Part shown: positions 1-7,932 of the stretch, one piece after another
Layout: every line of letters begins with the position of its first letter
Position numbering within the stretch: the first letter of the stretch is position 1
Origin: a virus
Lineage: Duplodnaviria > Heunggongvirae > Uroviricota > Caudoviricetes
DNA length: 7,932 nt
IMG/VR virus record: IMGVR_UViG_2529293240_000012
Location: 1 to 7,932 of that record
Strand: one strand, 5' to 3'
Position numbers and translations under genes: made by a program
Notes under the pieces: model-generated
Told to the model about the DNA's origin: nothing
The model's input: only the letters and a program-made list of their open reading frames with translations
The model's database searches: none

Positions 1-34
1 GTGTCGATGAGTCCGGAAAGTGCCGGTACATCAT

Positions 35-319
35 TCAGGCCGGGAAAATGGTGCTCTCCATCCACATATCCAGCTCTGAATCCGGTGCCTGTGCCCGAAT
101 GAAGACGGCAATATGCAGAACAGCCTGCCAGTCATCTTCATCCGTCATTTTTCCGGTGTACTGAGCATCACTCAGCCACACCGCCACGGCAGGCAGTTCC
201 TGCGCATCAATAAATGCCGGAAGCCCGTCAAAAAACGTGGCGCTGTCTCCACACTGTTCCCGAAGGCGTGCCAGTACGACCTGGCGGATCTGTGTATGTC
301 GGTTCATCGGGTCAGCCAT
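35..319 (-). CDS. Tail terminator protein, lambda gpU-like; reading frame broken near the 3' end (frameshift relative to gpU)
   Basis: The 94-aa ORF resembles lambda gpU as I recall it (ATFFDG..PAVAV..YTG...W...LHI.VF..AQ.PDSELD.WMES). A second ATG at 307 forms an ATGA overlap with the stop of the upstream Z-like gene and gives an N-terminus of gpU-like length; a GAGG lies just before the ATG at 319. The ORF stops at 35-37 (TGA), but the -1 frame continues LNDVPALSGLIDT to the window edge, matching the gpU region that follows (my recollection: DIPALSDLIT). Confidence 0.7.
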   Translation of the reverse strand: MADPMNRHTQIRQVVLARLREQCGDSATFFDGLPAFIDAQELPAVAVWLSDAQYTGKMTDEDDWQAVLHIAVFIRAQAPDSELDMWMESTIFPA

Positions 320-888
320 AACCTCAGTTGTTGTTTCAGTGCATACCCCAGCTGTTTCGGCATTTCCGCAGCAATGATGCGGTCGCGGGCATCTTCAAAT
401 GCCTGTGTCAGCGGTCCGGACAGCGGGATTTTCACCACATCAATGGGGTAACGATTTTTGCCGTCAATACGCCGCATCACATGCCAGCGACCATTCGCCA
501 GTTGCTGAATAAACGCATCCCGGAAAAGGTATTTCCCCACTTTCAGTACGCTGCCACGATGACGTGAGTTGCTGCCATGCCGGGAGCGGGCCAGTCTGAC
601 CTGTGCGGTACCCAGCTTAATGGCGGGCAGGTTACCCCGGTTAACACGCATGCGGGCATACATTTTTCCTGAGGGGCTGGCTTTAAGCAGCCTGACACGC
701 TCCCTGACCGTTTTCAGGGGAATACCTTTCACCTGGTTATCCCCGGCAACGGTATTCTGCGCAACCTGCCGTGTGGCGACAGAAATAATCTTTGCCGCCA
801 CACGGTTTACCGCCCATGCGCTGGCCTGTGGCACCATGCGGGTATCGAGGCTGTTCAGATTACGGATGGCATTCTCAAGCCCCTTCAT
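304..888 (-). CDS. Minor tail protein Z-like (lambda gpZ family, tail completion)
   Basis: 194-aa ORF whose size and position (just upstream of U) match lambda gpZ (about 192 aa). AGAGGTG Shine-Dalgarno about 6 nt upstream of the ATG at 886-888. Family assignment is from gene order plus recalled similarity. Confidence 0.65.
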   Translation of the reverse strand: MKGLENAIRNLNSLDTRMVPQASAWAVNRVAAKIISVATRQVAQNTVAGDNQVKGIPLKTVRERVRLLKASPSGKMYARMRVNRGNLPAIKLGTAQVRLARSRHGSNSRHRGSVLKVGKYLFRDAFIQQLANGRWHVMRRIDGKNRYPIDVVKIPLSGPLTQAFEDARDRIIAAEMPKQLGYALKQQLRLWLTR

Positions 889-899
889 CCCACACCTCT

Positions 900-1175
900 T
901 TACTCAATAAAGATCATTGGTTTACCGTTAAAGCGTTCATGCCGTGTGACCGTCCATTGTTGTCCGTCATAAACAACGCGGTCCCCGCGCCGTGGGCGGT
1001 ATCCCGAAGAAAACACCACCAGAGAGACCGCCGGTCCGGACAGAGCGTTCAGCTCTGCCAGAGTTTCTCCCGGGAGCACAGGCATATAAACATCATTAAT
1101 CGAGGCCATCTTTCCCATCTTTCTGACCGTGATCGCATCCATACGCGCTGCCAGCCGGGAAAAGGGATCAGACAT
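900..1175 (-). CDS. Head–tail joining protein at the lambda FII position (family often annotated as prophage ATP-binding sugar transporter-like)
   Basis: 91-aa ORF between the DUF2190-like gene and the Z-like gene, the position FII occupies in lambda (E-FI-FII-Z-U). Its ATG (1173-1175) overlaps the end of the upstream gene in an ATGnnTGA arrangement, suggesting translational coupling. Family call is from memory and is not certain. Confidence 0.5.
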   Translation of the reverse strand: MSDPFSRLAARMDAITVRKMGKMASINDVYMPVLPGETLAELNALSGPAVSLVVFSSGYRPRRGDRVVYDGQQWTVTRHERFNGKPMIFIE

Positions 1176-1491
1176 TGAGTTTTACCGGCACTTCTTCTGC
1201 ACCAGCTCCGGCATCTGCCCAGACAACCCCGACCAGCGGATCAGAGCCGCTGTTAGTCAGCTGAACTTTTCCGGACTTCAGAAAAACCTTCTTACCCGTT
1301 TTCATGTCATCCGTTTTCAGCTTAGGCAGCATAAACACACCTTCGGTCAGGCCGTCGCCTGTTTCACCCTGTGGAATATCGGTCAGCGCCACCGCAAAAA
1401 CATCACCCACCTGCACCAGATCTCCGCTGCTGATGGCTGCACTGGCAACAATCGCCACCGTTTTTCCTTCTTCTACAAAATTCTTTGCCAT
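1168..1491 (-). CDS. DUF2190-family small head protein (head decoration/cement-like)
   Basis: The ORF track starts at 1536, but an internal ATG at 1489-1491 is preceded by GGAGA 5-6 nt upstream and gives MAKNFVEEGKTV..., the typical DUF2190 N-terminus as I recall it. Sits immediately downstream of the capsid gene. 107 aa from this start. Confidence 0.6.
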   Translation of the reverse strand: MAKNFVEEGKTVAIVASAAISSGDLVQVGDVFAVALTDIPQGETGDGLTEGVFMLPKLKTDDMKTGKKVFLKSGKVQLTNSGSDPLVGVVWADAGAGAEEVPVKLNV

Positions 1492-1534
1492 AACTGTCTC
1501 CGCACAGCCCCGTTCAGGGGCTGATTTCAGGTAC

Positions 1535-1554
1535 AAAAAAAGCCCTTACGGGCC
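1535..1554 (-). terminator. Putative intrinsic terminator or attenuator downstream of the capsid gene
   Basis: On the minus strand, 21 nt after the capsid stop: G-GCCC-GUAA-GGGC-U followed by seven U (plus strand a7-gccc-ttac-gggc-c). The stem is only 4-5 bp but all G:C with a GNRA-type loop and a U7 tract. Lies in the 43-nt gap between the capsid stop (1578) and the DUF2190 start (1491). Confidence 0.35.
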
Positions 1555-1577
1555 ATCAGAGTTGTTGTCTGCGACGT

Positions 1578-3212
1578 TTACGCCGTACATTTCACCAGAC
1601 CGCGGTGATCAACTGGCGCAACACCAGCGTCAATACGCACTTTCGTTGTCACGCCATCCACACTGAAGCCCTCCATCTGATCAATATATGGCGTATCCAC
1701 ACCGTTGAGATAAGCCACTTCAATCGTATCGGAGCCTTTGGACGCTGCCAGATAAAAAGTGGTCTGGCTGTTATCATCAAGACGAGGCTCTGCAATAACG
1801 GTCGCAAAATCTTTCACCGGGTTAATAATACCGGCGTTAATGTCAGCCCCCTTGACACTTGAGGAGCGAATGACCTGGTTAGCAACAGACTCCATCGCCG
1901 TCGGTACCAGTACGAACGCAGGACGAATATTCAGATGACGCTCACCCTCTTTCTGAACACGCATCAACTGGCGGGCTTTATCCAGCGATGCCACGTCCAT
2001 TGCTGCGCTCTCCAGTACGTTTGCATGTTTCGCTTTATCGAACAGGCTTACATTATCTGTGGAGATTTTCGGGTTAGACGTCAGAATGGCATAAACCAGA
2101 TTGGCAATAGTGGATTTCGCCGCACGGCCCAGTTTCATCGGGACATCGGTCAGCATATTCAGATCATCGTTGATAATGGCCTGACGGGTGATACTGAACA
2201 GTTCACCATAGGTCGCCAGTGCAATCGTGGCCTGTTTATCTCCGGTAGTAACGTATTTATATTCCGCCCCTTCACGCACCTGACGCAGAGCACTGAAGCC
2301 CCCCATACCCACACGATGGGCAATTTTAAAATCAGACAGTTGACCTTTCCGCGTCCACTGTTCATAGGTTTCAGGGGCATCTTCCCAGCCCTGCAGAATG
2401 GCTTTGTTCGCAACATCCAGCAGAATATTACCGAAGTCAGACGTACTGTGTGTGAACGCTGCCCCGACCATCTGCATCGGGTTATAACCGGAAACCCCAA
2501 TACCCCGTTCAGTCAGTGACATACGGGCATATTCACGCAGGGTCATCCCGTTGTAGACATTATCACGTTCAGTTTTTTCAAACCCGGCACGCGCCATCAG
2601 CGCCTGGCGGATCCCGTCCCCCACAAAATTACCGTTTCCGGCATAAATATGGGCCGGGGTATTTTTATTTGATGGTGAAAATTCCTTACCCATTTCGTTA
2701 AGTAATTTCTCACGGGCCTGCTCAAGCGAGCACTCCGGATCGGAAAGACAACTGGCCTGCAATGTCTGATAACGCCCGCCAAACATACCAAACAGTTCAT
2801 TAATACCACTCACACGTGCTTTTTGCTCTGCCAGTACCTGCGCACGGATACTGCTTTCATCTGCGGAAGGTGCATTTGTGGTGGTCGCGGTTGTGGCAAC
2901 CTGAGCCGTAGTCTGCTCCTGTGTCTGAGATGCAGTATTTTTGTTTTCAGGTTCACGCGTTGCACTGTTGCGTGGCGGAGTAATCATGTTTCGAATGGAT
3001 TCCGGCATCTTTTTAAATTCCTCTGTACGTTTTGACTGAATACATGCCATTGCCTTAACGGCTGGCGTCACCTGATCAGCAAATCCATGTGCCAGACATT
3101 CGGCACCGGACATCCAGGTCTCATCCGCCAGCATGGCAGCAACTTCATCGGTGGTTTTCCCGGTTTTCTGTGCATAAGCGGGTAACAGAACCGCCTCAAC
3201 TTTATCGAGCAG
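1578..3212 (-). CDS. ClpP-like prohead protease–scaffold–major capsid fusion protein, 5' end interrupted by IS600 (probably a pseudogene)
   Basis: 518-aa ORF from the ATG at 3132-3134. The same frame stays open a further 26 codons upstream to the IS600 boundary at 3212 and only stops inside the IS. The residues just before and after the ATG (..AYAQKTGKTTDEVAAMLADETWMSGAECLAHGFADQV) match the C-terminal helix region of ClpP-type proteases. This is followed by a Thr/Ala/Gln-rich linker and about 400 aa of capsid-like sequence. The catalytic core of the protease is absent from the window. Confidence 0.75.
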   Translation of the reverse strand: MLDKVEAVLLPAYAQKTGKTTDEVAAMLADETWMSGAECLAHGFADQVTPAVKAMACIQSKRTEEFKKMPESIRNMITPPRNSATREPENKNTASQTQEQTTAQVATTATTTNAPSADESSIRAQVLAEQKARVSGINELFGMFGGRYQTLQASCLSDPECSLEQAREKLLNEMGKEFSPSNKNTPAHIYAGNGNFVGDGIRQALMARAGFEKTERDNVYNGMTLREYARMSLTERGIGVSGYNPMQMVGAAFTHSTSDFGNILLDVANKAILQGWEDAPETYEQWTRKGQLSDFKIAHRVGMGGFSALRQVREGAEYKYVTTGDKQATIALATYGELFSITRQAIINDDLNMLTDVPMKLGRAAKSTIANLVYAILTSNPKISTDNVSLFDKAKHANVLESAAMDVASLDKARQLMRVQKEGERHLNIRPAFVLVPTAMESVANQVIRSSSVKGADINAGIINPVKDFATVIAEPRLDDNSQTTFYLAASKGSDTIEVAYLNGVDTPYIDQMEGFSVDGVTTKVRIDAGVAPVDHRGLVKCTA

Positions 3213-3276
3213 TGAGGTAGCCTGAGTTTAACGGACACTCCTTCCTGAAATAGAATGGCATCAGAAGGAGCTAATA

Positions 3277-3579
3277 ATGAGCAGAAAAACCCAACGTTAC
3301 TCTAAAGAGTTCAAAGCCGAAGCTGTCAGAACGGTTCTTGAAAATCAACTTTCGATCAGTGAAGGCGCTTCCCGATTATCCCTTCCTGAAGGCACTTTAG
3401 GACAATGGGTTACCGCCGCCAGAAAAGGGCTCGGTACTCCTGGTTCCCGCACGGTGGCTGAACTGGAATCTGAAATTCTGCAACTGCGTAAGGCGTTAAA
3501 TGAAGCTCGCCTTGAGCGAGATATATTAAAAAAAGCAACAGCGTATTTTGCACAGGAGTCGCTGAAAAATACGCGTTAA
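3277..3579 (+). CDS. IS600-like transposase OrfA (HTH DNA-binding subunit)
   Basis: 100-aa ORF with AGGAG 8 nt upstream of the ATG. C-terminal leucine-zipper-like region (ELESEILQLRKALNEARLERDILKKATAYF) typical of IS3-family OrfA. Slippery run A AAA AAA at 3528-3534 near the 3' end. Confidence 0.85.
   Translation: MSRKTQRYSKEFKAEAVRTVLENQLSISEGASRLSLPEGTLGQWVTAARKGLGTPGSRTVAELESEILQLRKALNEARLERDILKKATAYFAQESLKNTR
3528..3534 (+). other. Probable programmed -1 ribosomal frameshift heptamer (A AAA AAA) joining IS600 orfA to orfB
   Basis: The heptamer is in the X XXY YYZ phase of orfA. A -1 slip gives ..KKSNSVFCTGVAEKYALIEQWRQQFPIEAMCQVFGVSRSGYY.., which is the orfB frame and a typical IS3-family OrfAB junction. 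Confidence 0.6.
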
Positions 3580-3614
3580 TCGAACAATGGCGACAACAAT
3601 TTCCCATTGAAGCG

Positions 3615-4434
3615 ATGTGTCAGGTATTTGGTGTATCCAGGAGCGGTTATTACAACTGGGTACAGCATGAACCCTCAGACAGAAAACAAAGTGATGAGCG
3701 GCTAAAACTGGAGATTAAGGTGGCACATATCCGCACTCGCGAAACATATGGAACCCGGCGGCTCCAGACGGAGCTGGCAGAGAATGGCATCATCGTTGGT
3801 CGTGACCGACTGGCACGTCTTCGTAAGGAGCTAAGGCTACGCTGTAAGCAGAAACGCAAGTTCAGAGCGACTACGAACCCGAACCACAATCTGCCAGTTG
3901 CGCCAAATCTGCTGAACCAGACGTTCGCTCCTACAGCACCAAATCAGGTCTGGGTGGCGGACCTGACGTATGTTGCCACACAGGAGGGATGGTTGTACCT
4001 CGCTGGCATCAAAGATGTTTATACGTGCGAAATTGTCGGCTACGCCATGGGAGAGCGCATGACAAAAGAGCTGACAGGTAAAGCCCTGTTTATGGCGCTC
4101 AGGAGCCAGCGCCCACCTGCCGGGCTAATCCACCACTCTGATCGAGGTTCACAGTACTGCGCATACGATTACCGGGTCATACAGGAGCAGTCTGGTCTGA
4201 AAACATCAATGTCGCGTAAAGGTAACTGTTACGACAACGCTCCGATGGAAAGCTTCTGGGGAACGCTAGAAAAATGAGAGCCTGAGCCACTATCGTTTTA
4301 ATAACCGGGATGAAGCCATCTCAGTAATACGGGAATACATTGAGATTTTCTACAATCGTCAGCGTCGTCACTCTCGTCTGGGGAATATCTCCCCGGCAGC
4401 CTTCAGGGAAAAATATCATCAGATGGCTGCTTAA
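3615..4434 (+). pseudogene. IS600-like transposase OrfB (DDE catalytic subunit), interrupted by a frameshift near 4265-4277
   Basis: The ORF from the ATG at 3615 ends at TGA 4275-4277 after 220 aa (..ESFWGTLEK*). The +1 frame continues immediately as NESLSHYRFNNRDEAISVIREYIEIFYNRQRRHSRLGNISPAAFREKYHQMAA to 4434, the conserved IS3-family OrfB C-terminus. 218+1+53 = 272 aa, the expected intact length. Consistent with a single-base insertion. Confidence 0.75.
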
Positions 4435-4477
4435 AAAAAGAACAAATGGTAGTGTCCGCTATTGCCAGTACACCTCA

Positions 4478-4602
4478 CTGTTCAGCATGGTTGTAACGAC
4501 AATTTCGGTGAAATACTTAGTGGGTAGCTCCTGACCGAATACCAGTACAGTTTCTTTGTCAGCGCTTAGTGCGATATCCAGTTTGCGATAAGTAATAGAC
4601 AT
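4478..4602 (-). pseudogene. 5' stub (41 codons) of a gene cut off by IS600; possibly the N-terminus of the ClpP-like protease
   Basis: ATG at 4600-4602 with AAGGAG 7 nt upstream. Encodes MSITYRKLDIALSADKETVLVFGQELPTKYFTEIVVTTMLN, then runs into the IS600 right end and stops 6 codons inside it. Weak resemblance to the ClpP N-terminal beta-strand region (..KERVIFLTGQVED..IVAQML..). Not in frame with the 3' part across the IS. Confidence 0.35.
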
Positions 4603-4707
4603 ATTTGTTTCTCCTTTTGAAAAGATGTTTTAAAAAGATTGAACTTATCGGTCTTCCATAGGTATTCCTACGGCGTCTCCCCGTATCTTGGTCAGTTCAA
4701 AAGGTGG

Positions 4708-4724
4708 TGCTAGCTGTGCTAGTG
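4708..4724. repeat. 17-bp exact repeat TGCTAGCTGTGCTAGTG containing the palindrome CTAGC-TGT-GCTAG (copy 1, intergenic)
   Basis: Identical 17-mer also at 4937-4953, with flanks similar over about 21 bp. This copy lies 34 bp downstream of the 74-aa ORF stop and is followed by a (TGA)4 run. Confidence 0.6.
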
Positions 4725-4757
4725 GTGATGATGATGACGATGAACTACGTGGGTTAA

Positions 4758-4982
4758 TTACATGAAATCTCTTGGGGTCAGCCCTGCGTCAACCGCCATG
4801 AGACAGAGGGCAGCCTTAGAGTAATACGGGCGGATTTCCTTGGCAGGCAGACCCAGAGTAGCTATCAGCGCCTTGGTGGGTACTACCATCAGGCGTAACG
4901 CCTTACGGCCTTCTGGTGTCCTTGGGTCAATCTTGATGCTAGCTGTGCTAGTGATGTTGGTGCCATTTGTGTTATTATTCAT
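4758..4982 (-). CDS. Hypothetical small protein (74 aa), translationally coupled to the upstream Rha-family gene
   Basis: ATG at 4980-4982 overlaps the Rha gene stop (minus strand ..CATGAATAA..) and is preceded by GGAGGAGG. Asn/Thr-rich N-terminus followed by a more ordinary 50-aa region. I recognise no family. Confidence 0.5.
   Translation of the reverse strand: MNNNTNGTNITSTASIKIDPRTPEGRKALRLMVVPTKALIATLGLPAKEIRPYYSKAALCLMAVDAGLTPRDFM
4937..4953. repeat. 17-bp exact repeat TGCTAGCTGTGCTAGTG (copy 2, inside the 5' end of the 74-aa ORF)
   Basis: Exact copy of 4708-4724 in the same orientation, 229 bp away. On the minus strand it encodes ITSTAS near the N-terminus of the 74-aa protein. Confidence 0.6.
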
Positions 4983-5676
4983 GAATTACCTCCTCCAGCC
5001 TTGCTACTGCCTGTAGGTGTTGCTGTTTAGCAGCGTCGCTTCCATGAACCGCTATGACCTTTCCGCGCATCTTGAGTACGTTTTCAGGTCGGCTGAAGAA
5101 CTCCAGTCCCTTGGCGTTAAACCGAATGTTTATACCGTTCGGGTTGAATCGATGGTCAGTAGGTTTGATAATTCGAAAGTATTCCGCATAGTCTGGATTG
5201 ACTGACCACTCGCCACTGAAAGGATGTACTCGGAACAACTTGCGCTCTTTCTTAAGGATGGTCATCAGTTTCTGAGCGGGTAGACCATTGGCCTTGCAGT
5301 AATCGCCCCAAGTCACGCCTCGACGGTTAGCCGACTGAATGACCGCTCGTTTCTTCTGGTCTTCCAGTTGAAGGACTCTCTGTTCTAACGCCTGAATATG
5401 GTCGTAGCATTTAGCACGGAGGCGAGCAGAATAACCAGCGACCAGAATAAAGGTATGCTTTCGGTCTAGGCGATACATTACCCGGCTCTCGCCTTTAGCG
5501 TCCTTGTATACTTCCTCGCTAACCGGCTCAGTTTTGAGCGCGTTAAGCTCCTCAACCATATTGCGAATATCACGCAGGACATTTCGGTGTGCCTTGCCTG
5601 TCATCTCGGCAATTTCAACTGAGGTCATGGAGATAAGCTGGTCAAGGTTAATGACGCTGATTCCTTGTTGAGACAT
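4975..5676 (-). CDS. Phage regulatory protein, Rha family (antirepressor-like; N-terminal Rha domain plus a C-terminal domain of uncertain type)
   Basis: From the ATG at 5674-5676 (AAGGAAA about 8 nt upstream) the product is 233 aa. N-terminus MSQQGISVINLDQLISMTSVEIAEMTGKAHRNVLRDIRNMVEEL matches the Rha-domain signature (..EIAE.TGK.H.NVLRDI..). The longer ORF-track start at 5772 adds an implausible Leu/Val/Arg-rich extension and has no ribosome-binding site. Confidence 0.7.
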   Translation of the reverse strand: MSQQGISVINLDQLISMTSVEIAEMTGKAHRNVLRDIRNMVEELNALKTEPVSEEVYKDAKGESRVMYRLDRKHTFILVAGYSARLRAKCYDHIQALEQRVLQLEDQKKRAVIQSANRRGVTWGDYCKANGLPAQKLMTILKKERKLFRVHPFSGEWSVNPDYAEYFRIIKPTDHRFNPNGINIRFNAKGLEFFSRPENVLKMRGKVIAVHGSDAAKQQHLQAVARLEEVIHE

Positions 5677-5818
5677 AGCTTGATTTCCTTTTGTTTGCAC
5701 CCTGAAGCCGCACCCCACTGGCCTACTCAAAGTCCCCAAGCGAAGGGAGACCAGCAGGACAACAGGATGCAAACAGAATGACTTTGAGATTGAATGAATG
5801 AATGGTGATGATTGTGTC

Positions 5819-5836
5819 GTAGCTGTGCGGAGCTAC
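5819..5836. repeat. Inverted repeat GTAGCT-GTGCGG-AGCTAC upstream of the Rha-family gene; shares TAGCTGTGC with the 17-bp repeats
   Basis: 6-bp arms with a 6-bp spacer, about 145 bp upstream of the Rha start and about 50 bp from the IS2 left end. The 9-mer TAGCTGTGC is common to all three sites. Confidence 0.3.
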
Positions 5837-5977
5837 TGTATGGTGAAGCGCGAGAGGTGGAACTTTGGGAGAGACACGTGGTGCTATAGACTGGCCCCCT
5901 GAATCTCCAGACAACCAGTATCACTTATTTAAGTGATAGTCTTAATACTAGTTTTTAGACTAGTCATTGGAGAACAG

Positions 5978-6343
5978 ATGATTGATGTCTTAGGGCCGGA
6001 GAAACGCAGACGGCGTACCACACAGGAAAAGATCGCAATTGTTCAGCAGAGCTTTGAACCGGGGATGACGGTCTCCCTCGTTGCCCGGCAACATGGTGTA
6101 GCAGCCAGCCAGTTATTTCTCTGGCGTAAGCAATACCAGGAAGGAAGTCTTACTGCTGTGGCCGCCGGAGAACAGGTTGTTCCTGCCTCTGAACTTGCTG
6201 CCGCCATGAAGCAGATTAAAGAACTCCAGCGCCTGCTCGGCAAGAAAACGATGGAAAATGTACTCCTCAAAGAAGCCGTTGAATATGGACGGGCAAAAAA
6301 GTGGATAGCGCACGCGCCCTTATTGCCCGGGGATGGGGAGTAA
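5978..6343 (+). CDS. insC: IS2 transposase OrfA (InsC)
   Basis: 121-aa product [41 protein letters not shown].. from the ATG at 5978 with GGAGAA upstream. The ORF track starts at 5933, but that start lies partly in the terminal inverted repeat. Slippery A AAA AAG at 6295-6301. Confidence 0.9.
6295..6301 (+). other. IS2 programmed -1 frameshift site (A AAA AAG) for the OrfAB fusion transposase
   Basis: The heptamer is in the orfA phase (gca AAA AAG tgg) at the start of the orfA/orfB overlap. This is the known IS2 frameshift window. Confidence 0.8.
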
Positions 6344-7206
6344 GCTTAGTCAGCCGTTGTCTCCGGGTGTCGCGTGCGCAGTTGCACGTCATTCTCAGAC
6401 GAACCGATGACTGGATGGATGGCCGCCGCAGTCGTCACACTGATGATACGGATGTGCTTCTCCGTATACACCATGTTATCGGAGAGCTGCCCACGTATGG
6501 TTATCGTCGGGTATGGGCGCTGCTTCGCAGACAGGCAGAACTTGATGGTATGCCTGCGATCAATGCCAAACGTGTTTACCGGATCATGCGCCAGAATGCG
6601 CTGTTGCTTGAGCGAAAACCTGCTGTACCGCCATCGAGACGGGCACATACAGGCAGAGTAGCCGTGAAAGAAAGCAATCAGCGATGGTGCTCTGACGGGT
6701 TCGAGTTCTGCTGTGATAACGGAGAGAGACTGCGTGTCACGTTCGCGCTGGACTGCTGTGATCGTGAGGCACTGCACTGGGCGGTGACTACCGGCGGCTT
6801 CAACAGTGAAACAGTACAGGACGTCATGCTGGGAGCGGTGGAACGCCGCTTCGGCAACGATCTTCCGTCGTCTCCAGTGGAGTGGCTGACGGATAATGGT
6901 TCATGCTACCGGGCTAATGAAACACGCCAGTTCGCCCGGATGTTGGGACTTGAACCGAAGAACACGGCGGTGCGGAGTCCGGAGAGTAACGGAATAGCAG
7001 AGAGCTTCGTGAAAACGATAAAGCGTGACTACATCAGTATCATGCCCAAACCAGACGGGTTAACGGCAGCAAAGAACCTTGCAGAGGCGTTCGAGCATTA
7101 TAACGAATGGCATCCGCATAGTGCGCTGGGTTATCGCTCGCCACGGGAATATCTGCGGCAGCGGGCTTGTAATGGGTTAAGTGATAACAGATGTCTGGAA
7201 ATATAG
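6301..7206 (+). CDS. insD: IS2 transposase OrfB (InsD, DDE catalytic domain)
   Basis: 301-aa ORF starting at GTG 6301, matching IS2 InsD as I recall it; uninterrupted. Confidence 0.9.
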
Positions 7207-7830
7207 GGGCAAATCCAGAGAGTTCTCCGCTTCATATTGCTCAAAGAGGCTCGCTATGGTAATGCTAGGCGTAACTTCTGGTTTTACTTCTGGAGCACTA
7301 ACAGATAGGGACACAGGGGCTTGGTCATCTTGCCGATCAATATCATTAAAACGATCGACGTAATCTATCAGAGGCTGACTATCTCCCGCTTCGATACGCC
7401 TCATACAGGCTTTTAGCACCTTCAGGGCCTCATTGATGTAACGATGCTGGTCAATACTTAGCGGCTCACTAGCCAGAGCATCGGTAAGGCTCTCACCAAG
7501 TTCTCCGTATTGGTCCCGGTAGATATCCCTCATGTCAGGCTCAAAGAGATCTGAACGGCCCATAGACAGTTCACACTCAGCGATGTCCTTAAGGTGCTCC
7601 CTCATCTCCTCATAGGTAGCGTTGGGTCTGTCTGCGTGTATTGCCTTGAGTGCTGCCTTGATGTGCCTTGAGTGAGCCATAGCGGTGCGTCTATCCTTGG
7701 TCCGTAATGATACTGAGGTCATTCTATCATTGTTTGATTGTCTGACCCGAAGACGGAAGTAGTAGACGCCGTTACGCTGGTAGAGATAGGAGACGGCTGG
7801 AAGTTTGTGACTACTGGATAGCTGAATCAT
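7177..7830 (-). CDS. Tyrosine integrase-like protein, N-terminal fragment (arm-type DNA-binding domain); 3' end replaced by IS2
   Basis: N-terminus ..[38 protein letters not shown].. fits the arm-binding motif of phage integrases (compare the ..SLGTKDKRQA.. segment I recall from DLP12 IntD). The last 13 codons and the stop lie inside the IS2 right inverted repeat (7177-7217), so the native gene is cut at 7218. No downstream catalytic domain in the window. The frame is also open upstream of the ATG at 7830 to the window edge, but that extension does not look coding. Confidence 0.45.
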
Positions 7831-7932
7831 ATGTCTGTATGCCCTGAGAGGGTTACACAGTGGGTTACAGTAAGTAACTCTGCAAGGAGGCTTAAAGCCA
7901 TATCCCTTAGGATTCAGTAAGTTGGAATACTT

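Follow-up and report, generated by a model that had tools for sequence, protein, structure and literature searches.

Genes and insertion sequences of the window

The locus analyzed here is a 7,932-nt stretch of DNA (IMG/VR record IMGVR_UViG_2529293240_000012; hereafter the window), which holds the remnant of a compact island associated with a tRNA-Gly gene, part of the late region of a lambdoid prophage, and two complete insertion sequences (ISs), IS2 and IS600. The window corresponds to the full length (7932 bp) of the draft contig AFOW01000038.1, and its proteins carry the NCBI names of Shigella flexneri. The same locus (L003) is found in the complete chromosome of S. flexneri 3a J17B (CP100042; PMC10732043).

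On the minus strand, starting at the window's right end, the first feature is a 102-nt segment (7831..7932) that forms the island's left arm and spans the interval separating the start of the integrase gene from the tRNA-Gly attachment (att) site; it aligns with the sequence following tRNA-Gly in J17B and with the glyU region of Escherichia coli LR-64-1. Next come a 204-codon 5' fragment of a tyrosine integrase gene with a DUF6538-type N-terminus (7218..7830, minus strand; weak Pfam match, E 8e-6) and a complete IS2 of the IS3 family on the plus strand (5887..7217; 1331 bp; Pfam HTH_Tnp_1 and rve). Beyond IS2, the minus strand carries 210 nt of the region upstream of Rha (5677..5886), aligned with LR-64-1, a Rha-family, anti-repressor-like gene (4975..5676; Pfam Phage_pRha, E 1e-17; PHROG 10324, E 3e-42), a gene encoding a 74-aa protein without a family match, which overlaps the end of the Rha gene (4758..4982), and the first 41 codons of a DUF6971 gene (4478..4602; Pfam E 9e-16, profile positions 1-36 of 89). 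The DUF6971 gene is cut by a complete IS600, another member of the IS3 family (3213..4477, plus strand; 1265 bp), identified by Pfam and by reading its ends.

On the far side of IS600, the minus strand continues with a 5'-truncated gene encoding a fusion of a ClpP-like prohead protease and a major capsid protein (1578..3212), in which a CLP_protease remnant precedes the capsid domain. It is followed by a phage cement (head decoration) gene (1168..1491; Pfam Phage_cement_2, E 1e-19; DUF2190 in relatives), a Gifsy-2 family head-tail joining gene (FII-like, 91 aa; 900..1175; Pfam PF13856, E 2e-16), the minor tail protein Z gene (304..888; Pfam Minor_tail_Z, E 1e-73), and the minor tail protein U gene (1..307; Pfam Phage_tail_U, E 1e-40), which runs off the contig end and encodes 133 aa in J17B. 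No terminase or portal gene was found among the open reading frames of the window or by Pfam, and ARAGORN detected no tRNA gene inside it; a hybrid tRNA-Gly(UCC) gene ends 12 nt past its right end.

A preliminary description of this DNA had already reported the lack of terminase and portal genes as well as the succession of an integrase-like N-terminus, IS2, and a Rha gene along the minus strand, and Pfam together with the LR-64-1 and IS2 alignments supports both statements. Other details need correction. The protease-capsid gene, said to lie between positions 4478 and 7830, is located at 1578-3212, and that interval ends at the edge of IS600; the integrase start and the point where the head gene breaks off are 4.6 kb apart rather than 3.4 kb. 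The Rha and head genes, described as adjacent, are separated by the complete IS600 (3213-4477), which had gone unmentioned, and the supposed pair of Rha genes consists of one Rha gene and the unrelated 74-aa gene, followed by the DUF6971 fragment.

A draft contig of 7.9 kb that spans two multicopy IS elements might be a chimera, mis-joined across repeated IS copies. In the finished J17B chromosome, however, the same 7932 nt form one end-to-end block with 99.95% identity, in which the four IS junctions are reproduced exactly (4/4), and the two inner IS junctions are also found in unrelated read sets; a misassembly can therefore be practically dismissed. The window differs from J17B at four positions: it lacks one nucleotide at 37, has an extra A at 4268, and carries single-nucleotide polymorphisms at 6261 and 6638, both within IS2. 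The deletion at 37 falls in a G run and shifts the reading frame at the end of tail gene U, and the extra A at 4268 shifts the frame of IS600 orfB; each of these two frameshifts may be a draft sequencing error.

The truncated lambdoid late region

Positions 1-3212 of the window are collinear with the head-tail modules of lambdoid prophages in FDAARGOS_944 (L001; 99.7% identity) and FDAARGOS_943 (L010; 98.7% identity), two genomes labelled E. coli. Judged as a lambdoid late module, the window contains the collinear genes for the protease-capsid fusion, DUF2190, FII-like, Z, and U proteins; terminase and portal genes upstream of them and a complete protease-capsid gene are absent. In both FDAARGOS prophages, the genes encoding the small terminase subunit (DUF1441), the large terminase subunit, a W-like protein, and the portal protein stand directly upstream of the full protease-capsid gene. 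The intact fusion protein comprises 686 aa, with the CLP_protease domain at residues 31-191. The copy in the window lacks the first 142 codons, including the start codon and most of the protease domain, of which the last 48 residues remain (profile positions 132-179 of 182).

The FDAARGOS_943 prophage shows the uninterrupted plan: Q, the tRNA genes up to tRNA-Gly, lysis genes, ParDE, KilA-N, the terminase genes, the W-like gene, the portal gene, and the protease-capsid gene; two copies of IS600 lie among these genes. Its segment from Q to the tRNA genes is 99.7% identical to that of J17B and does not contain any island. In this prophage, terminase and portal genes lie between tRNA-Gly and the point where the head gene of the window is broken. 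To the left of the window, in J17B, the late operon continues with tail genes V to J.

We also noted that the FDAARGOS_943 locus (NZ_CP065615.1, 270000-318000) carries copies of IS600, ISSfl3, and ISSso6, and that its prophage has an ipaHe pseudogene at the end, after the tail-fibre genes. This strain looks like Shigella or enteroinvasive E. coli, and its prophage belongs to the ipaH-carrying kind.

The proximity of an integrase, a Bro/Rha-type regulator, and capsid genes resembles the order found in phage-inducible chromosomal islands (PICIs), and one could read the window as a small satellite, either a PICI or a capsid-forming PICI (cf-PICI), to which the neighboring protease-capsid and head-tail genes belong and which borrows its other functions. 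We consider this highly improbable: the capsid gene has lost its 5' part and is joined to IS600, the head genes match full lambdoid late operons in gene order and at 98.7-99.7% identity, a correspondence that extends to tail genes V to J, and AlpA, primase, terminase, and portal were not found in the window. The preliminary description had raised, as its second choice, a compact element type that borrows packaging functions. This suggestion fails for the head genes, which form an ordinary lambdoid module with a truncated gene, but comes near the truth for the int-Rha module, which belongs to a distinct compact element.

The island remnant and its intact relatives

The integrase fragment of the window shows 93.6% DNA identity to the 5' part of the gene encoding the 544-aa integrase of E. 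coli LR-64-1 and stops exactly at the end of IS2; the catalytic Phage_integrase domain (residues 335-523 in the 544-aa relative) is missing. When the 204-aa fragment was used as a protein query, it retrieved mostly fragments and no near-identical full-length integrase. The Rha gene, which opens the conserved cargo module of intact islands, encodes an apparently intact protein of 233 aa. The 74-aa protein has no match in Pfam, PHROG, or PADLOC; a homolog with 69% aa identity occupies the same position in the island of Klebsiella pneumoniae ATCC 13883. The full DUF6971 gene encodes 136 aa in relatives, and homology to LR-64-1 starts at window position 4477. In terms of cargo order, Rha and the 74-aa gene are therefore intact in the window, DUF6971 is cut at codon 41, and the last gene of the module, with a predicted HK97 fold (see below), is deleted.

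The block comprising int, Rha, the small open reading frame, and DUF6971 has 89-94% DNA identity to an island of LR-64-1 that adjoins the chromosomal tRNA-Gly(CCC) gene glyU, between actS and yqeG; phage structural genes are absent from its surroundings. K. pneumoniae ATCC 13883 carries the same module beside tRNA-Gly(CCC), again with no phage structural genes nearby, and more distant islands occupy the same tRNA gene in about 100 E. coli genomes. Measured from tRNA-Gly to the right attachment site (attR), the islands are 4.2-6.4 kb long and share one gene order, namely an integrase gene, often a DUF4145 gene, a non-coding stretch, a Rha/KilA-N-like gene, a gene encoding 62-76 aa, DUF6971, and a gene encoding 373-402 aa. 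The DUF4145 gene, with 100% aa identity in Klebsiella, matches the PADLOC model PD-T7-4 (E 8e-99), a system now named RAZR, and is absent from the lineage of the window and from LR-64-1. No Pfam match to AlpA or primase was obtained in the window or in the intact relative, and none of the PADLOC models covers Rha, the 74-aa protein, DUF6971, or the 373-aa protein. As a minor variant, E. coli SBF22 (L015, 7221-11423) carries a minimal 4.2-kb island composed of the left attachment site (attL), an integrase gene, one T7 promoter, two small unassigned genes, and attR.

Integration into a prophage tRNA-Gly gene

Extension to the right, which the preliminary description had suggested together with the extension to the left reported above, leads in J17B to the prophage Q antiterminator gene, followed by four tRNA genes (Met/Ile, Arg, Thr, and Gly-UCC), the last of which forms a hybrid att site. 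The integrase gene starts about 100 nt after tRNA-Gly(UCC), and Q, the tRNA genes, int, Rha, the capsid gene, and the tail genes all lie on one strand.

The junction itself is informative at the nucleotide level. The empty prophage tRNA-Gly gene of FDAARGOS_943 has the 3' end GGGTTCGATTCCCGCTGCCCGCTCCA, and the occupied gene of J17B has the 3' end GGGTTCGATTCCCTTCGCCCGCTCCA, in which the bases past the T-loop common to both genes are of the glyU and island att type and are followed by the island flank as at glyU. The tRNA-Gly(UCC) gene of J17B is accordingly a hybrid, with its 5' part from the prophage and its 3' end from the island, and represents attL. Complete islands carry a far-side repeat of TTCGATTCCCTTCGCCCGCTCCA, to which the prophage tRNA gene matches in 20 of 23 bases. 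This direct repeat, attR, which copies the final 23 nt of the tRNA gene, is absent from the window and from the J17B locus; it is present in L015, L016, L012, and L029 and degenerate in the LR-64-1 locus (L002).

The reciprocal junction is kept in S. flexneri UGYR01000001 (L029), where attR reads CTCGATTCCCGCTGCCCGCTCCA, the original 3' end of the prophage tRNA gene. The order there is DUF6971, a 379-aa gene, attR, the sequence that follows the empty tRNA gene, and the holin, lysozyme, and Rz genes; the island allele is only 90% identical to that of the window. An independent and complete case was found in E. coli EPSSH018, in which a 6.4-kb island with an integrase of the same family is located between a prophage tRNA-Gly gene with a hybrid end and the holin gene, co-oriented with the prophage late genes, with a GCTG-type end at attR. 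The hybrid attL, the reciprocal attR, and the EPSSH018 case together argue for site-specific integration of the island into a prophage tRNA gene, and the junction sequences point to the island's own integrase as the probable catalyst.

Two side observations concern these tRNA loci. By hand inspection, the hybrid tRNA-Gly(UCC) of J17B (L003, 6964-7038) has two mismatches and one wobble pair in the T and acceptor stems, and ARAGORN still calls it a tRNA. The stem mismatches suggest that the prophage tRNA may function poorly; at glyU, by contrast, the tRNA gene is restored when the island integrates. In UGYR01 (L029, 1-9268), an IS connects the island remnant to a P22-like set of terminase, portal, scaffold, and coat genes that run the opposite way, and this junction is another IS-mediated rearrangement at the same locus.

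The preliminary description attributed the whole arrangement to the collapse of a single lambdoid prophage by IS deletion, in which case the integrase and Rha genes would be early genes of that prophage. IS2 and IS600 do stand at both discontinuities without target duplications, and Rha-type genes are common in lambdoid early regions, with two such genes lying farther upstream in J17B. Yet the block of int, Rha, the 74-aa gene, and DUF6971 is syntenic in small glyU islands devoid of phage genes, the J17B integrase gene lies downstream of Q and the tRNA cluster and abuts the hybrid tRNA gene instead of the prophage end, and the same prophage is known without the block in FDAARGOS_943. Descent of all these genes from one prophage is therefore very unlikely. 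What survives of that explanation is the mechanism proposed for the loss of terminase and portal, which agrees with the FDAARGOS_943 comparison and the absence of target duplications, but int and Rha come from a separate island.

Losses associated with IS2 and IS600

The window's IS2 shares 99.6% identity with an IS2 copy annotated in L014, and the IS600 is 99.2-99.4% identical to three annotated IS600 copies; both have the characteristic lengths, terminal inverted repeats, and orfA/orfB genes with HTH and rve domains of the IS3 family. A simple insertion leaves a target duplication of 5 bp in the case of IS2 and 3 bp in the case of IS600. The flanks of IS2 read TGCTA and GAGAG and those of IS600 read CAG and CTG, so that neither element is bordered by a duplication. 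In the reference prophage of FDAARGOS_943, two of the three IS600 copies have 3-bp target duplications. The lack of duplications at both elements is the expected mark of a deletion or recombination at each IS.

The extent of the losses can be read from the relatives. Homology to the intact LR-64-1 island ends, at one side of IS2, near codon 209 of 544 of the integrase gene and resumes, at the other side, about 200 nt upstream of Rha, which implies the absence of approximately 1.0 kb from the integrase gene and of 1.1-1.3 kb from the intergenic region. The junction at 5878-5886 keeps TAGCACCAC, a remnant of the CACCACTAG repeat of LR-64-1. IS600 joins codon 41 of DUF6971 to codon 143 of the protease-capsid gene; in FDAARGOS_943, the distance from tRNA-Gly to this break point is 10.7 kb, or 8.2 kb after subtraction of its two IS600 copies. 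For each loss, the sequence fits either intramolecular transposition or recombination between two IS copies, and either may have operated. A 10-nt extension of the IS600 alignment into the flank seemed to link the element to the IS600 beside the empty tRNA gene; inspection revealed no real identity, and this candidate was rejected.

The same nested composite could also have arisen if the missing segments had been moved elsewhere by IS recombination, that is, by inversion or translocation. Shigella genomes are rich in IS600 and IS2, and the UGYR01 remnant, joined via an IS to inverted P22-like genes, illustrates such an event. We nevertheless rate displacement as unlikely, since the prophage genes on the two sides of the scar retain their order and orientation, with Q, the tRNA genes, capsid, and tail on one strand; two separate inversions would be needed to restore this order, and two deletions are simpler.

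Taken together, the gene order of the window is very probably that of a tRNA-Gly island nested in a lambdoid prophage and reduced by deletions associated with IS2 and IS600. The proposed history begins with an S. flexneri lambdoid prophage carrying Q, the tRNA cluster, lysis genes, terminase, portal, the ClpP-capsid fusion, and tail genes, as observed in the reference prophage. A compact island, whose usual target is the glyU tRNA-Gly(CCC) gene, would then have entered the 3' part of the prophage tRNA-Gly(UCC) gene, presumably through its own integrase, to produce the observed junctions, and would have come to lie between the tRNA genes and the holin gene, co-oriented with the late operon. An IS2-associated deletion would have taken the catalytic two-thirds of the integrase together with the promoter region, and an IS600-associated deletion would have fused the DUF6971 gene of the island to codon 143 of the protease-capsid gene. 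The latter event would have removed the 3' end of DUF6971, the capsid-like gene, attR, and about 8 kb of the prophage, comprising the lysis genes, both terminase subunit genes, the W-like gene, the portal gene, and the protease N-terminus; the end points are those seen in the window, and the mechanism is the one we favor. The island is now immobile because it has neither a recombinase domain nor attR, and the prophage is immobile because lysis and DNA packaging are impossible.

Several points weigh against this history. This lineage has neither attR nor the missing genes, which leaves attL as the junction from which integration into this particular prophage is deduced, and the attR-bearing UGYR01 island, being only 90% identical, may record a separate integration event. 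The choice between loss and displacement by IS-mediated inversion or translocation draws on the scar locus of J17B and falls short of proof, the IS2 and IS600 events may have occurred in either order, and the role of the island's integrase is deduced from the junctions.

The nested scar by itself is a modestly unusual variant of known processes. As in IS-decayed Shigella lambdoid prophages, such as the ipaH-carrying remnants, IS600 and IS2 are accompanied by adjacent deletions, and head and tail remnants persist without lysis or packaging genes; the window differs from them in that its scar also includes fragments of another element, unrelated to the prophage, that had integrated within it. 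As such, the IS scars are typical of genome decay in Shigella. Under the history proposed here, what looks like an aberrant phage plan becomes readable as nested integration followed by two IS deletions. It also shows that prophage-borne tRNA genes can receive islands whose normal target is a chromosomal tRNA gene, which offers such islands a ride inside a temperate phage, with neither element inactivated until IS decay sets in.

Phage-polymerase promoters in intact islands

In the window, no promoter of the T7 group was detected at up to 4 mismatches, and the functions of the island cannot operate there, since only the Rha and 74-aa genes are intact and the promoters are gone. The evidence on the promoter region comes from the relatives, in which the stretch deleted from the window is preserved. 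Each of the four E. coli glyU islands inspected carries TAATACGACTCACTATAGGGAGA once or twice, 140-170 nt past the integrase or RAZR stop codon and aimed at the cargo genes. These promoters are identical over 23-27 nt to the T7 promoters just upstream of genes 6.5, 9, 10, 13, and 17 and near the T7 right end. Exact T7 promoters are located at L002 11465-11487 and 11584-11606, L011 18309-18331, L014 9140-9162, L015 9149-9171, and L016 2957-3537. When the LR-64-1 promoter region was compared with a whole phage collection, it matched T7-family phages only, and control loci had no T7-type promoter, even at 4 mismatches.

The promoters number one to four per island and are not confined to the T7 type. 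L011 and L016 also hold Klebsiella-T7-like and other variant promoters, and promoter variants occur in L012 and L028. E. coli M217 and K. pneumoniae ATCC 13883 have four promoters with three different specificity regions. The type AATTAGGGCACACTATAGGGAGA is present in many copies per genome in ~40-kb Klebsiella T7-like phages and is an annotated promoter in phage K30; further variants are found in the embedded island of EPSSH018 and in a metagenome contig. A scan for exact T7 promoters with one genome per species yielded nine loci, eight of which are short contigs from unrelated taxa and probably represent vector carry-over; the K. pneumoniae locus is the sole informative hit.

Between the T7 promoters and Rha, LR-64-1 (L002, 11371-12420) contains dense short repeats, with about 17 CTCTAGGGTCTCT units, AT-rich TTAACTTAAAGAC, CTCAGTTTTGAGCAC, and CACCACTAG, none of which has a match in the T7 genome. 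The idea that this region mimics a T7 origin or packaging (pac) site was examined against all phages and the T7 genome and was rejected, as the match is limited to the promoters and nothing in the region resembles T7 ends, origins, or packaging signals.

The capsid-like last gene and DUF6971

The last gene of the islands is located at L002 14111-15232, L016 5324-6532, L011 14787-15914, and L029 10513-11652. Its 373-aa product has no sequence match in Pfam or the PDB. An AlphaFold model built with 30 homologs (pLDDT 73, pTM 0.69) gave 102 PDB and 160 viral hits at E <= 1e-3 in a fold search, solely HK97-fold capsid proteins and encapsulins. The best hits have E values of 4e-8 and 6e-10 with a probability of 1.00; the TM-scores of the hits are low (0.25-0.40) and sequence identity does not exceed 14%. 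From this model, the last gene of the island is predicted to encode a protein with the HK97 capsid fold.

DUF6971 corresponds to PDB entry 5EUR, the hypothetical protein SF216 of S. flexneri 5a M90T, with 85-88% identity to the sequence modelled. Its model consists of a small sheet followed by long charged helices, and the fold search returned its own crystal structure 5EUR alone, which has no assigned function.

Comparison with known systems and possible roles

The nested configuration is closest to that of helper-embedded PICIs (HE-PICIs), which target late protein-coding genes at 14 sites and have integrases of one clade, AlpA, and replication genes (Tommasini, Mageeney & Williams 2023, PMC10111431). 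Both are small integrase-bearing islands placed in a lambdoid late region, co-oriented with it as in J17B and EPSSH018, and form a nested composite. The island of the window differs in its target, which is a prophage tRNA-Gly(UCC) gene, in its DUF6538-type integrase, whose usual site is glyU, and in the fact that no AlpA or primase was found. The hallmarks of HE-PICIs are the clade integrase and an attP with a doubled TGTATTGC motif; the comparison made here concerns target, integrase type, and gene content.

Like cf-PICIs, which have their own HK97-fold capsid genes, the island relatives end in a gene with a predicted HK97 fold. In contrast to cf-PICIs, the islands lack terminase, portal, protease, AlpA, and primase and have promoters for phage RNA polymerases, and the head genes adjacent to the island in the window run on into tail genes, which cf-PICIs do not have. 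PICMIs (phage-inducible chromosomal minimalist islands) are satellites of virulent phages, about 6 kb in size, located next to fis and encoding int, alpA, and primase (PMC10803314). The islands described here share with them the size class (4.2-6.4 kb in the relatives) and an implied virulent-phage partner; they differ in their position at tRNA-Gly, in the absence of a detectable alpA or primase gene, and in the capsid-like gene, which PICMIs lack.

The third point of contact is RAZR, an anti-T7 RNase first named PD-T7-4 (PMC9519451; Nature 2026, PMC13017515). According to the original report, PD-T7-4 "often overlaps an integrase gene" (Vassallo 2022, PMC9519451), and in relatives of the island the integrase gene is likewise directly followed by the PD-T7-4-matching DUF4145 gene. 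The passages searched in PMC9519451 and PMC13017515 make no mention of a tRNA-Gly site, T7-type promoters, or a capsid-like gene. Nothing specific was found on T7 promoters in chromosomal islands or on satellites of T7-like phages in the literature searched, the coverage of which was incomplete, and a description of the island family was not found in it either.

Exact T7-class and Klebsiella-T7-like promoters in natural chromosomes, near RAZR and ahead of a module with a predicted HK97-fold gene, suggest that infection may be sensed via the phage polymerase. In an intact island, the polymerase of an infecting T7-like phage would transcribe the module, and its products might act in an abortive or decoy defense, for example through a capsid-like protein that disturbs head assembly, or might be part of a satellite life cycle; the evidence favors neither. 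From the promoters, the gene order, and the predicted fold, we infer promoter firing, particle formation, mobilization, and defense as possible activities of such islands. It is conceivable, and we propose it tentatively, that the remnant in the window derives from a family of tRNA-Gly islands of about 4-6.4 kb in Enterobacteriaceae wired to the single-subunit RNA polymerases of virulent T7-like phages; in the strong form of the proposal, the islands would be satellites of these phages, or abortive or decoy defenses against them, that make a capsid-like shell of their own once the phage polymerase is present. On this view, islands lodged in the tRNA-Gly gene of a lambdoid prophage would also travel with a second phage. 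If true, this may be the first satellite-like or decoy system against T7-like virulent phages in enterobacteria. The larger lead is therefore the island family with its phage-polymerase promoters and capsid-like gene, the key parts of which lie outside the window.

Additional observations on related loci

Another allele of the integrase (P0032; L025), with 94% aa identity and covering residues 119-403, is present on 835-bp S. flexneri contigs, and its 90% cluster comprises 79 sequences; this allele indicates that S. flexneri holds at least one more IS-bounded copy of the integrase. Beyond the degenerate attR of LR-64-1 (L002, 15660-22100), we found a PDC-S67 candidate defense gene (PADLOC, E 4e-27), a gene for a short tyrosine recombinase, four iteron-like repeats (GATATACGGGAAAAACCCGTA), and a gene encoding a DUF6945 protein with a weak match to a replication initiator, and this block looks like an accreted second element.

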